From the NCBI GenBank assembly GCA_028711065.1, contig JAQTSY010000002.1, forward strand, positions 8,263-72,262: a DNA stretch of 64,000 nucleotides, in the 5' to 3' direction. The position numbers and the translations under genes are program-made. The DNA comes from Minisyncoccota bacterium (GTDB lineage: Bacteria; Patescibacteriota; Minisyncoccia; Phycocordibacterales; JAQTLZ01). Under the pieces are notes generated by a model, which searched no databases, had not been told where the DNA came from, and saw only the letters and a program-made list of their open reading frames with translations. Below, in pieces: positions 34,093-56,256 of this stretch. The stretch's first letter is position 1; each line of letters starts with the position of its first letter.

Positions 34093-34117
34093 AATGGTCT
34101 ATAATAGCTCTTAATGA

Positions 34118-34200
34118 ATCCCGTTAGAAGCAACCAACATTTATACATTATGCTTTATTCAAACCATTATCAAATAATCGGAGCTAGCTTCTAACGGGAT
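34118..34200 (+). promoter_or_regulatory. 14-bp perfect inverted repeat (atcccgttagaagc ... gcttctaacgggat) with 55-nt spacer; right arm overlaps recJ start codon
   Basis: TATAAT at 34101-34106 precedes left arm; predicted 5'-UTR stem sequestering recJ translation start. Confidence 0.35.
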
Positions 34201-35923
34201 GAAATCTTATTCAGTTAGAGAAAGTATACCAAAAGATCAGGGAAAAGGTTTGGAAGCATTTCCTGAACTTACTCGCCATCTTTTATTTCACCGAGGTATA
34301 CAAAATGCTGAAGATGCGAAAACATTTTTAAATCCCGATTATATTTCGCATGTTCATGATCCCTATCTTTTGTCTGGAATGGACAAAGCGGTCCAAAGGA
34401 TTCTTTCCGCGATAGAAAAAAAAGAAAAAATCTGCATCTACAGCGACTATGACATGGACGGAATCCCTGGAGCGATCGTTCTCTCTGATTTTTTCAAGAA
34501 AATTGGCTATAAAGAAAATATTCGAGTCTACATTCCGCATCGGCATGACGAAGGATTTGGATTGAATCATGATGCGATAGAAGATATTGCAAAAGAGGGC
34601 GCGAAGCTTCTCATCACCATTGATTGTGGTATTGCTGACCCGAAAGAAGTCGCCCACGCAAATTCGCTTGGTCTCGATGTTATTGTTACCGATCATCATT
34701 TGCCTGGGAAAACCCTGCCCGAAGCGTTTGCGATCATAAATCCGAAATGTTCTCCAGAATATCCGTTTCAAGATCTTTGCGGTTCCGGAGTTGTCTTCAA
34801 GCTTGTTCAAGCCCTCCTTACAAAAAATAATTTTGGTTTGAAAGAGGGAACAGAGAAATGGCTCTTGGATATGGTGGGAATGGCAACTTGTTCGGATATG
34901 GTTCCTCTTGTCGGGGAGAATCGCGTTTTTGCCCAGTATGGTTTGAAAGTGCTTCGCAAATCTCCTCGAGTCGGACTTTTGAAATTCTTTGCGAAAAATA
35001 AAGTAAATCAGCGCGATCTTACCGAAGATGATATTGGTTTTACTATCGCTCCGCGAATAAACGCGGCTTCTCGAATGGGGGATCCGATGCAAGCCTTTCG
35101 ACTTCTCTCGACCGATGATGAAGCGGAGGCAGACGAACTATCTGATTATTTAAATCAGGTGAATGATGAACGAAAGGGGGTTGTCGCTTCAATGGTTAAA
35201 GAAATGAAGAAAAAAATCGAAGTTCGATTTGCCAAGAAAGAGATGCCGAAAGTTTTGGTAATGGGAAATCCGCTTTGGCGCCCATCGCTTTTAGGACTTG
35301 CAGCGAACACATTAATGGAAGCTCATTCTCGGCCGGTATTTTTGTGGGGCAGAGACGGAGGAGATGGAGAGGGGGCGCTTAAGGGTTCGTGCAGATCGGA
35401 TGGAAGCGTTTCTCTCGTTGGACTTATGCAAGCGACACGCCCTGGAGTATTTGCGGAATTTGGCGGGCACCATATGGCTGGAGGATTTACTGTTGTATCC
35501 GACAAAGTGCATTTTCTTGAAGCGGAATTGGAGCATGCGTATGAAAAAGCACGGGAGGCATATGAAAAACCAGACGCGCTTCTTGTAGACAAAAAACTTT
35601 TGCTCGAGGATGTAAATTGGCAAACCTACGGAGAAATCGAGAAGCTCGCACCATTTGGAGTGGGGAATGCAAAACCGGTTTTCCTTTTCGACAATGTAAT
35701 CATTGAAGAAGTAAAACAATTCGGAAAAGAGAAAAATCATCTCGAACTGCTCTTCAGAAAAGCAGACGGCAGAAAAGTCTCAGCAATTTCTTTTTTCTCA
35801 TCTCTCGCAGATTTTGAAGTACCGATTGAGAAGGGGAGTATGGTTAACCTCGTGGCATCACTTGAAAAATCTACCTTCAGAAATTTTCCTGAATTACGAT
35901 TACGGATTATTGACATTGTATAA
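34199..35923 (+). CDS. recJ: single-stranded-DNA-specific exonuclease RecJ
   Basis: DHH motifs (DYDMDG, ITIDCG, DHH at VTDHHLPG), DHHA1 domain. Confidence 0.92.
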   Translation: MKSYSVRESIPKDQGKGLEAFPELTRHLLFHRGIQNAEDAKTFLNPDYISHVHDPYLLSGMDKAVQRILSAIEKKEKICIYSDYDMDGIPGAIVLSDFFKKIGYKENIRVYIPHRHDEGFGLNHDAIEDIAKEGAKLLITIDCGIADPKEVAHANSLGLDVIVTDHHLPGKTLPEAFAIINPKCSPEYPFQDLCGSGVVFKLVQALLTKNNFGLKEGTEKWLLDMVGMATCSDMVPLVGENRVFAQYGLKVLRKSPRVGLLKFFAKNKVNQRDLTEDDIGFTIAPRINAASRMGDPMQAFRLLSTDDEAEADELSDYLNQVNDERKGVVASMVKEMKKKIEVRFAKKEMPKVLVMGNPLWRPSLLGLAANTLMEAHSRPVFLWGRDGGDGEGALKGSCRSDGSVSLVGLMQATRPGVFAEFGGHHMAGGFTVVSDKVHFLEAELEHAYEKAREAYEKPDALLVDKKLLLEDVNWQTYGEIEKLAPFGVGNAKPVFLFDNVIIEEVKQFGKEKNHLELLFRKADGRKVSAISFFSSLADFEVPIEKGSMVNLVASLEKSTFRNFPELRLRIIDIV

Positions 35924-35988
35924 TATTTAGTATATAATATAACTCGGTAGTTTTTCGATAACATTCACTCTTTTGGGAGACCGGGATC

Positions 35989-36414
35989 ATGTTGATTCTC
36001 AGAGATTTTTTCCTTTTGGGCCTAGCCGGCCTTGGGATGGAAGTCGTATTCACCTGGTTCTTTGCAGCGAAGAGGAACCAGGCGAACGTCGTTCATCACC
36101 GGATGGCAATGGGTTACAGCCACCCGTATTTCATCGTGACGTATGGAACTGTCGCGCTTTTGTTCGCGTGGCAGGGCAATGCGATCTTTGAGTGGCATTG
36201 GATCGGGAGATATTTCTTTTTCACAGCATATGCATTCGTCCTCGAGACGTTGCAGAATCTGTGTCTAAGAGCGATCCATGGTCAAGGGCCTTGCGAAGAA
36301 GTGTATCGCAGGTCGGGGAAGGCACTTTTCGGCGGATTGGTCCGCTGGGACTTCCCATTTTACTTTGGCGGTGCGGGGTTTTTGTTCCAGCTCGCCTACC
36401 AGTCAATGCACTAG
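35989..36414 (+). CDS. hypothetical 4-TM membrane protein in high-GC islet
   Basis: 141 aa, aromatic-rich TM segments; -10 TATAAT at ~35953. Confidence 0.4.
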   Translation: MLILRDFFLLGLAGLGMEVVFTWFFAAKRNQANVVHHRMAMGYSHPYFIVTYGTVALLFAWQGNAIFEWHWIGRYFFFTAYAFVLETLQNLCLRAIHGQGPCEEVYRRSGKALFGGLVRWDFPFYFGGAGFLFQLAYQSMH

Positions 36415-36434
36415 AGAGATTTAAGGAGGGGAAA

Positions 36435-36533
36435 ATGTTGAAATATTTCGGTGCAGAGATGCTCTTTTTGATGATGATCACCTTGATGCTTTTGGGGGTC
36501 TTCATTGTCGCATGCTGGAGGCCGGCCTTTTAG
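36435..36533 (+). CDS. small hydrophobic peptide (32 aa) with strong SD
   Basis: AAGGAGGGG 5 nt upstream of ATG; MLKYFGAEMLFLMMITLMLLGVFIVACWRPAF single TM. Confidence 0.3.
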   Translation: MLKYFGAEMLFLMMITLMLLGVFIVACWRPAF

Positions 36534-36757
36534 TGTCTTCACTTTTAGCGGGGGGACTCTCGTGGGTAAAGTCGAAAAAACAGGCTGGAAACAAAGAGTT
36601 TGCGATTTCTTGGCAGAGTGCTTAAGTTGGGCAGTGGCGATCATTGCCTGGCTTTGCACTCGGCCTCTCAAACTTATTTTCTGGGCACTGTCGGAGATCA
36701 AAGGTAACGAGTAACAGAGGACGAAAGTTCTCTGTTTTTTTATGTTACTATATTTCG

Positions 36758-37465
36758 ATGCAATCAATTATTATTTTTACTGATGGAGCATCTCGAGGAA
36801 ATCCTGGGCCGGGCGGGTGGGGAGCCGTGATCGTAGAGAATGGAAAAGTTATTGAACTTGGCGGCACTGATAAAAAGACTACAAACAATAGAATGGAACT
36901 TTCAGGTGCCCTTGGAGCACTGCTTTCTCTGGGACAGAATAAAAATGAGAAAATCATGCTCTATTCCGATTCAAGTTATCTTCTAAACGGCATAACCAAA
37001 TGGGCAAAGGCATGGGAAGCGAACGGTTGGAAAACAAAAACAAAAGAAGATGTGCAAAATCGCGATCTGTGGGAAAAACTTCTCGACGCAGTAGATGGCA
37101 AAAATATTGAATGGAAATATCTCGGAGGGCACGTTGGAATCGCTGGCAACGAACGTGCAGATGAGATTGCAACTTCTTTCGCAGGTGGTGTGCCGACGAA
37201 GCTTTACAGTGGAGCACTTTCCGGATATGGAAGAAACATTTTAAATTTCGATCTCGACAAATCTCTCGCAAAAGAAAAAAGCGCTTCGCGCGCCCATTCG
37301 AACGCGAAAGCTTATTCATACTTAAGCCTTATCGATGGGATGCTTATCAAACATTCGACTTGGGCGGACTGCGAAAAGCGAGTAAAAGGCAAAAAAGCGA
37401 AATTTCGCAAAGCTCTCTCGGCTGACGACGAACAAGCTATTATGAAAGAGTGGGGCGTGAAATAG
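36758..37465 (+). CDS. rnhA: ribonuclease HI with C-terminal Cauli_VI-like (viroplasmin-type) domain
   Basis: N-terminal RNase H fold (FTDGASRGNPGPGGWG...MELSGAL...YSDSSYLLNGITKW...HVGIAGNERADEIA); C-terminal YSYLSLIDGMLIKHSTWADCEKRVKGKKAKFRKALSADDEQA resembles Cauli_VI domain, which is usually N-terminal. Confidence 0.85.
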   Translation: MQSIIIFTDGASRGNPGPGGWGAVIVENGKVIELGGTDKKTTNNRMELSGALGALLSLGQNKNEKIMLYSDSSYLLNGITKWAKAWEANGWKTKTKEDVQNRDLWEKLLDAVDGKNIEWKYLGGHVGIAGNERADEIATSFAGGVPTKLYSGALSGYGRNILNFDLDKSLAKEKSASRAHSNAKAYSYLSLIDGMLIKHSTWADCEKRVKGKKAKFRKALSADDEQAIMKEWGVK

Positions 37466-55788: not shown

Positions 55789-56256
55789 ATGTGCAAGATC
55801 ATCACGTTCGCGAGCCCGTTTCTCTTCTTCATTTGCTTACTCACTGGCTGTTGCCGTGAGGAAGTGATGGAAGAGGGACAGTTCCGCGATGTTCCCTTGT
55901 CCTACGCCGGCGTTTCCGGCGAGTACAAGGTCTCGATCTCCTCCGAGCGCGAAGGAGAAAAACAGGTAACCCTCGATCCCATAGAGGGAAAGGGAGACCG
56001 GTTTTGGCGGATCTTCGCCAACATCACCACTTTTCAAGGGAAAACGGAAATCTCTCTCCACGTCTGGACGCCGAGTGACGAATGGAAGTTCGTCCACTAC
56101 AGAGTCTATGATAATGGAAAAGAGAAGTCCGTAAGGAAGCAGGGCGGCCGCTTCTCGAAAGAGGAGCTCAAGAGTGCGAAAGCACTTCTGAAGCAGGCGC
56201 TGGCGGACGTCGAGAACGACGAACACCGGCGGCCAACCCAGGTTTCCGAACCCTGA
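55789..56256 (+). CDS. lipoprotein (lipobox LLTGC), high-GC, foreign-looking
   Basis: AAGGAG SD 8 nt upstream; signal peptide plus LTGC lipobox; ~55% GC. Confidence 0.55.
   Translation: MCKIITFASPFLFFICLLTGCCREEVMEEGQFRDVPLSYAGVSGEYKVSISSEREGEKQVTLDPIEGKGDRFWRIFANITTFQGKTEISLHVWTPSDEWKFVHYRVYDNGKEKSVRKQGGRFSKEELKSAKALLKQALADVENDEHRRPTQVSEP

Follow-up and report, generated by a model that had tools for sequence, protein, structure and literature searches.

Proteins of the Pfam family PF06541 (ABC_trans_CmpB, former DUF1113; COG4905), to which also the animal proteins TMEM229A and TMEM229B belong, are polytopic membrane proteins whose biochemistry is uncharacterised. The family takes its name from CmpB of Clostridium hathewayi, which is encoded beside the ATP-binding cassette (ABC) protein CmpA (Rafii and Park 2008, as cited in PMC8635124, PMC5577244). 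Human TMEM229B has been tied to choline-plasmalogen ratios only by genome-wide association, and a speculative lysoplasmalogenase-like role has been proposed for it (PMC12393746). In the literature on PF06541, DUF1113 and CmpB we found no experimentally tested mechanism. Here, we describe a small relative of these proteins, encoded in a stretch of 64,000 nucleotides (nt) from a Minisyncoccota bacterium (contig JAQTSY010000002.1), which is called the window in the following. The gene, ORF-A (35989–36414, + strand), is the first of three open reading frames (ORFs) on the + strand of a segment at 35973–36720, situated between the genes for RecJ and RNase H (rnhA). It is followed by a reading frame for a 32 amino acid (aa) peptide, ORF-B, and by a putative third frame, ORF-C. 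In the explanation which we find best and consider probable, this segment is accessory cargo of the recJ–rnhA junction, with ORF-A encoding a CmpB/TMEM229 protein, ORF-B a young peptide, and ORF-C being no gene.

ORF-A was described from the outset as an aromatic-rich membrane protein of 141 aa with four transmembrane helices, and this description is confirmed by an aromatic content (F+W+Y) of 22% and by four long helices in the structure model presented below. A weak Shine-Dalgarno (SD) sequence, GGGAG (35975–35979, + strand), can be read 9 nt 5' of its start codon. A word-indexed search of 5.8 billion clusters returned only two relatives: P0001, 96% identical to ORF-A, and P0002, 65% identical. 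The former is encoded at the sister loci L001 and L002, which belong to two 'Candidatus Pacebacteria' metagenome-assembled genomes (MAGs) at NCBI from different samples, the latter on an 813-bp contig of the European Nucleotide Archive (ENA), L003. The order recJ–ORF-A–rnhA is kept at all three loci. Between the window and L001, ORF-A shows 29.5 synonymous and 6.5 nonsynonymous differences, corresponding to a ratio of nonsynonymous to synonymous substitution rates (dN/dS) of 0.046, close to the 0.039 of recJ. Judged by these homologs and by this substitution pattern, ORF-A is clearly a genuine gene, beyond chance.

More distant relatives became visible with profiles. When 1.84 billion representatives were searched exhaustively by HMMER with a three-sequence profile of the window clade, 28 matched at E <= 1e-3, about 25 of them being full-length proteins of 128–186 aa. 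PF06541 is matched by ten of these 28 family members, and four of them, scanned singly, exceed the gathering score of that family (25.9 bits): P0018 with 46.8, P0020 with 35.7, P0010 with 31.8 and P0043 with 27.6. Three of the four, P0010, P0018 and P0020, are matched by the three-sequence profile at 4e-8 to 3e-5 in the library of 1.84e9. A second search, with the family profile against 5.8e9 entries, produced 36 matches, among them TMEM229B-like animal proteins (5e-18 and 3e-15); two TMEM229B-like proteins likewise lie above the PF06541 gathering score. When the window clade was aligned by hhalign to the PF06541-positive members including the TMEM229B-like ones, a probability of 99.5% and an E-value of 2e-22 over 130 columns were obtained, that is, over nearly the whole protein. 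From this profile evidence, ORF-A is a divergent, shortened member of the PF06541 CmpB/TMEM229 superfamily and belongs to a rare clade of proteins of about 140 aa which is mostly missed by Pfam.

The conserved residues fit this assignment. E86, P101 and Y106 are invariant in the alignment of 28 sequences, and G14, E18, T22, G42, S44, Y52, R74, G98 and G116 are nearly so. Of the PF06541 motif set, the window protein has E18, G42, S44, Y52, R74, E86, P101, Y106, G116 and D121. ORF-A shares with the described family the helix-1 motif G-x-x-x-E-V-x-F-T, the glutamate of helix 3, the P-x-x-x-Y loop and the G-L-x-R-x-D/E hairpin. Differences exist as well. Where CPW(D/E)Y is usual in the family, the ORF-A clade has (S/G)P(S/C)E..Y, the helix-4 glutamate of the superfamily corresponds to Gln134, and there is no ABC partner. 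Human TMEM229B, although in the same superfamily, is eukaryotic and extended by about 40 aa at its N-terminus; the lysoplasmalogenase-like role proposed for it cannot be transferred to ORF-A.

Several points weigh against this assignment. ORF-A itself matches no Pfam family at E <= 1 and no NCBIfam model, its membership being based on transitive matches and on profile-profile comparison, and the members of its extremely rare clade cover just positions ~4–115 of the 151 of the PF06541 model. Nor are the neighbourhoods of family members consistent: they comprise PPIase/metK, DHH-RmuC-NYN/UvrD, genes for resistance-nodulation-division (RND) efflux, Peptidase_S13, amine oxidase and ArsR. Finally, the statement of the preliminary description that the function is unknown needs to be qualified, now that ORF-A can be assigned to a superfamily, albeit one whose biochemistry is experimentally uncharacterised.

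A search for further loci with the three-sequence profile retrieved one Melainabacteria locus from genome contigs and none from metagenome contigs. On two Melainabacteria-like contigs (L092:4001–5547 and L095:167–1713), a Peptidase_S13 gene (of the type of penicillin-binding protein 4) starts 7–40 nt after the family member. A gap within this range separates a distant family member in an Elusimicrobia MAG from a gene for a flavin-dependent (FAD) oxidoreductase of the amine-oxidase/phytoene-desaturase type (L093:1837–3759). These neighbours may hint at lipid or envelope metabolism; they are not consistent across the family. At another locus (L008:2287–8850) the family member P0052 is found amid genes of nucleic-acid metabolism (DHH/DHHA2, RmuC, NYN, then a UvrD/PDDEXK helicase). 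In reduced genomes with densely packed genes, such a resemblance to the recJ/rnhA/comEC context of the window has probably arisen by chance.

Structure prediction by AlphaFold2 (AF2) from three sequences was unusable (pLDDT, the predicted local distance difference test score, 53) and was repeated with the alignment of 28 sequences, which resulted in a pLDDT of 90.8 and a predicted template modelling score (pTM) of 0.83. This model has long helices at residues 2–28, 48–67, 71–97 and 123–140, with hydropathies of 0.75–1.84, a short helix at 103–109 and a small hairpin. No solved structure resembles the model, and a sequence profile search of the PDB returned noise; its sole fold neighbours in the viral library were uncharacterised proteins of Klosneuvirinae. 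Since the loops 28–45 and 97–122 carry positive charges (three and four K/R, respectively), the topology is likely to be N-out, and the positively charged face, on which the conserved loop motifs would lie, is presumably the cytoplasmic one. ORF-A is a stand-alone polytopic membrane protein and the main product of an accessory transcription unit. In the model, E18 in helix 1, E86 in helix 3 and R74 would lie inside the membrane, and GYS(S/H)xxY and G-x-(S/G)-P-x-E-x-x-Y...G-L-x-R-x-D would form loops at the cytoplasmic face. On account of these membrane-embedded residues and of the conserved loops on the presumed cytoplasmic face, we propose that ORF-A may act at the inner leaflet, binding or transforming a small substrate that is amphiphilic, lipid-like or cationic, and that it would do so without an ABC ATPase partner.

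The genes flanking the segment were named correctly in the preliminary description. The upstream one encodes RecJ, with DHH, DHHA1 and RecJ_OB domains, and the downstream one RNase H. The latter is followed by comEC at its 3' side, and a HIT gene lies upstream of recJ on the opposite strand. A metagenome scan with the RecJ of the window yielded 80 related loci (L012–L091; 50–63% RecJ identity), among which this HIT–recJ–rnhA–comEC block is widely conserved. When the family hidden Markov model (HMM) was run over all six-frame ORFs of these loci, no ORF-A homolog was found in any of the 80, with the positive controls L001 and L003 recovered. In the 56 loci with rnhA downstream, the gap between recJ and rnhA is <= 50 nt in 26, 51–300 nt in 10 and > 300 nt in 20. 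The large gaps hold cargo unrelated to ORF-A: a HicA toxin (E 1.3e-14) with a HicB-like partner (L042:5069–5498), a ribbon-helix-helix (RHH) protein (L049:4856–5071), small membrane proteins with two to three transmembrane segments (L033:4762–5025 and L068:4977–5411/L069) or, in other cases, several unknown ORFs. From the tight gaps on the one hand and the varied cargo on the other we conclude that the recJ–rnhA junction is a variable slot, an apparent hotspot for accessory genes in related Patescibacteria, with ORF-A as the cargo of one lineage. The HicAB pair of L042 shows that this slot takes up small accessory modules.

Thus, the suggestion that the unit is foreign to its surroundings gained support from its patchy distribution (absent from the 80 RecJ loci, present in L001–L003), from the 26 loci in which recJ directly adjoins rnhA and from its deviant composition. 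The ORF-A/ORF-B unit is accessory cargo inserted into the otherwise conserved HIT–recJ–rnhA–comEC block of a Pacebacteria-like (Patescibacteria) lineage. A recent transfer between the lineages of L003 and the window was also considered and rejected: ORF-A (65% identity) is no closer to its L003 homolog than is the N-terminus of rnhA (74%). For the same reason the insertion itself is, by this comparison of sequences, not recent and old enough to be shared with a relative of 65% identity. Another indel in the block was noted between the HIT gene and recJ, where L001 has two extra genes (L001:6747–8162; 369 aa and 99 aa, no Pfam match) which are absent from the window (34093–34198).

The composition of the segment is unusual, in a somewhat different manner than had been stated. 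Its GC content is 0.500 rather than the 55% first given (ORF-A alone 0.516, whole window 0.445), which still places it in the top 1.7% among windows of equal size. The stronger anomaly is that of third-position GC (GC3) rather than of overall GC: it amounts to 0.65 in ORF-A (z = 3.8) and 0.73 in ORF-B, compared to 0.416 +/- 0.061 in the other genes of the window. The GC3 anomaly of ORF-A is present in the sister locus L001, too. A survey of the window genes also bore out that most of them have no recognisable SD. The only other window gene with the compositional anomaly of ORF-A is an ORF of 155 aa right after the gene for elongation factor G (EF-G; 55789–56256, + strand; GC 0.545, GC3 0.70), which also has a good SD, AAGGAG. 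It matches no Pfam family, and its N-terminus resembles a lipoprotein signal (…CLLTGC…).

A promoter scan detected a sigma-70 type promoter, TTGACA-17-TATAAT, matching the consensus at 12 of 12 positions (35910–35938, + strand), with the -35 box within the last codons of recJ. It is identical in L001 and L002, and the same TTGACA-17-TATAAT occurs in the 65%-identity relative L003. At the other end, a 10-bp stem followed by a T-run forms an intrinsic terminator (36713–36743, + strand; 36713–36736 in the terminator scan), whose T-run together with the downstream ATGTTAC is common to the window and L001. With a consensus promoter and a terminator at its two ends, the ORF-A/ORF-B segment is best regarded as one transcription unit. 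A run of 181 nt (35864–36044, + strand) is 100% identical to L001, which is 88% identical overall. It extends from the 3' end of recJ through the promoter and the 5' untranslated region (UTR; about 44 nt) into ORF-A, of which it takes in the first 56 nt, and no longer perfect stretch occurs in the ~8 kb compared. A riboswitch-like cause was dropped since no significant fold was obtained for the 5' leader (z = +0.8 and -1.1); regulatory constraint and gene conversion are both possibilities. An Rfam scan of 35800–36900 at E <= 1 detected no family.

The 3' part of the segment, 36537–36712 (+ strand), turned out to be specific to the window when it was aligned with L001 and L002, where a 23-nt terminator hairpin occupies this place. 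It holds ORF-C, the third, GTG-initiated frame of the preliminary description. This frame of 50 codons exists, starting at 36562 instead of 36559 and ending at 36714 (+ strand), but it probably does not qualify as a gene: a protein search found no homolog, there is no codon periodicity (GC 0.47/0.43/0.51, p = 0.73), and the sister species has no copy. ORF-C overlaps a long imperfect RNA hairpin of about 115 nt (36580–36692), which belongs to no Rfam family and is more stable on the transcribed strand (-49.0 kcal/mol on the + strand, z = -4.0, with none of 200 shuffles as good; -35.2 kcal/mol on the - strand). From its sequence features, ORF-C is therefore best regarded as an open frame that arose by chance across a structured element of the 3' UTR, and not as a gene. 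The hairpin may represent a stable RNA or a site of processing, or else be what is left of a palindromic insertion. By blastn the segment had no phage match, nor was the hairpin apex matched in viral contigs. A repeated miniature inverted-repeat transposable element (MITE) could not be shown, as no second copy was present in the window or in the loci compared.

ORF-B (36435–36533, + strand) encodes the hydrophobic single-helix peptide MLKYFGAEMLFLMMITLMLLGVFIVACWRPAF, with a grand average of hydropathy (GRAVY) of 1.61. As had been stated at the beginning, its ATG at 36435 is preceded by a strong SD, AAGGAGGGG (36423–36431, + strand), which proved to be the strongest in the window and is conserved in L001 and L002. 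The start codon lies 20 nt 3' of ORF-A, one promoter and one terminator serving both. In arrangement ORF-B is reminiscent of KdpF, CydX and AcrZ, small single-helix membrane proteins which are encoded beside their partner: it is of similar size (~30 aa), has one hydrophobic helix and its own SD and directly follows the gene of a polytopic membrane protein. There is no sequence relationship to the known peptides, and the co-occurrence of ORF-A and ORF-B is limited to one species pair. The ORF-B peptide may associate with ORF-A.

Whether ORF-B is translated has to be weighed against the alternative that its 99 conserved nt are a constrained 3' UTR or RNA element, for instance belonging to a signal for termination or processing, with the frame and the SD being incidental. 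In L001 and L002 the frame of ORF-B is unbroken, and 81% of its amino acids and 92% of its nucleotides are identical, while the non-coding DNA flanking it is not even alignable between the window and L001. At the synonymous rate of ORF-A, 24.9 nonsynonymous differences from L001 would be expected in ORF-B, but only 6 are observed (Poisson P = 7e-6), and all six replacements are conservative or hydrophobic-to-hydrophobic. Its GC content by codon position, 0.33/0.30/0.73 (p = 6e-4), matches the codon bias of ORF-A with its unusual GC3. The SD is fully conserved and surpasses all others in the window, most of whose genes lack one; over the ORF-B region there is no Rfam match. On the other side, the evidence comes from a single genome pair, ORF-B does not exist in L003, and a small hydrophobic ORF follows the homolog in 0 of 11 other family loci. 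Related to its own dS, the dN/dS of ORF-B is 0.76 (2 synonymous, 6 nonsynonymous), which is not distinguishable from neutral partitioning (p = 0.67), and the eight substitutions are spread over codon positions 1, 2 and 3 as 1, 5 and 2. The constraint is significantly weaker than that on ORF-A (Fisher p = 0.003). Moreover, a weak terminator-like hairpin is located inside ORF-B (36514–36526), and an open frame of 32 codons is not improbable by chance. Altogether we regard translation of ORF-B as rather likely and the purely RNA-based explanation as doubtful, though worth keeping in mind. ORF-B is then most likely a young, fast-evolving single-helix membrane peptide which, as far as the sequences compared here indicate, is specific to the lineage of the window and its sister species.

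Three further interpretations concern the unit as a whole. The preliminary description had likened it to toxin/immunity or bacteriocin-like modules, with one or both of the peptides acting on the membrane as toxins or bacteriocins and ORF-A conferring immunity, or with these roles exchanged. Such a view could draw on the very hydrophobic 32-aa peptide with its strong SD adjoining a membrane-protein gene, on the HicAB pair in the same slot of the relative L042, and on a weak (9/12) antisense promoter-like site (36796–36767, minus strand), the surroundings of which are not conserved in L001. We nevertheless consider it very improbable. The HMM check proposed for the three ORFs gave no relevant match in Pfam, NCBIfam, PADLOC or PHROGs, hence no toxin, immunity, bacteriocin or defence homology, and the HicAB proteins are unrelated to those of ORF-A and ORF-B. 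Nor do peptide and membrane protein occur as a conserved pair. ORF-A homologs stand alone, without a small hydrophobic partner, in L003 and the 11 other family loci, so ORF-A needs no peptide partner. ORF-B lacks a leader and a double-glycine motif, genes for processing or export are not found nearby, ORF-C is missing from the sister species, and the superfamily of ORF-A includes the animal TMEM229 proteins. That ORF-A might instead be the membrane part of an ABC-type drug efflux system is suggested by its homology to PF06541, by the Pfam name 'putative ABC-transporter type IV' and by the report of CmpB in fluoroquinolone transport beside the ABC protein CmpA (cited in PMC8635124, PMC5577244). 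Against this, genes for an ABC ATPase are absent beside ORF-A in the window, from the surrounding 10 kb in L001 and from every other family locus examined, and the ORF-A family spans just positions 4–115 of the PF06541 model. In addition, CmpA-like proteins are of the ABC-F type, whose members are nowadays regarded as acting on ribosomes, and the transporter label is therefore weakly founded. A role of ORF-A in ABC-type efflux thus appears improbable to us. The deviant GC3 of the segment, finally, might raise the suspicion of assembly contamination or a chimera. The chance of this is practically nil, because recJ–ORF-A–rnhA is found in three other independent assemblies (two NCBI MAGs and one ENA contig) and the junctions align continuously, by which contamination is refuted. 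The explanation favoured here is the accessory unit with a CmpB/TMEM229 protein as its main product.

The PF06541 family itself was known before and is functionally uncharacterised; what is new is its divergent, short form, ORF-A. The current understanding is not overturned by the findings on ORF-A and ORF-B. Profile comparison allows a protein so far regarded as hypothetical, from an uncultivated lineage of Patescibacteria, to be assigned to the CmpB/TMEM229 superfamily, and a rare, minimal clade of about 140 aa, mostly missed by Pfam, has been defined. ORF-B is a plausible young small membrane peptide and as such of modest interest for the evolution of small proteins. For the reduced genomes of these bacteria, the recJ–rnhA junction emerges as an apparent recurrent landing site for small accessory genes, including toxin-antitoxin systems, small membrane proteins and ORF-A. 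One may speculate further that the recently born ORF-B peptide was recruited by the minimal, stand-alone ORF-A and that both form a two-subunit membrane complex in which ORF-A acts on lipids, as an enzyme or carrier, via its two intramembrane glutamates. We consider this unlikely, yet if true, such a complex would provide ultra-small episymbiotic Patescibacteria with an accessory means of membrane-lipid remodelling or scavenging, and ORF-A would be a tractable bacterial model of 141 aa for the uncharacterised human TMEM229 proteins.

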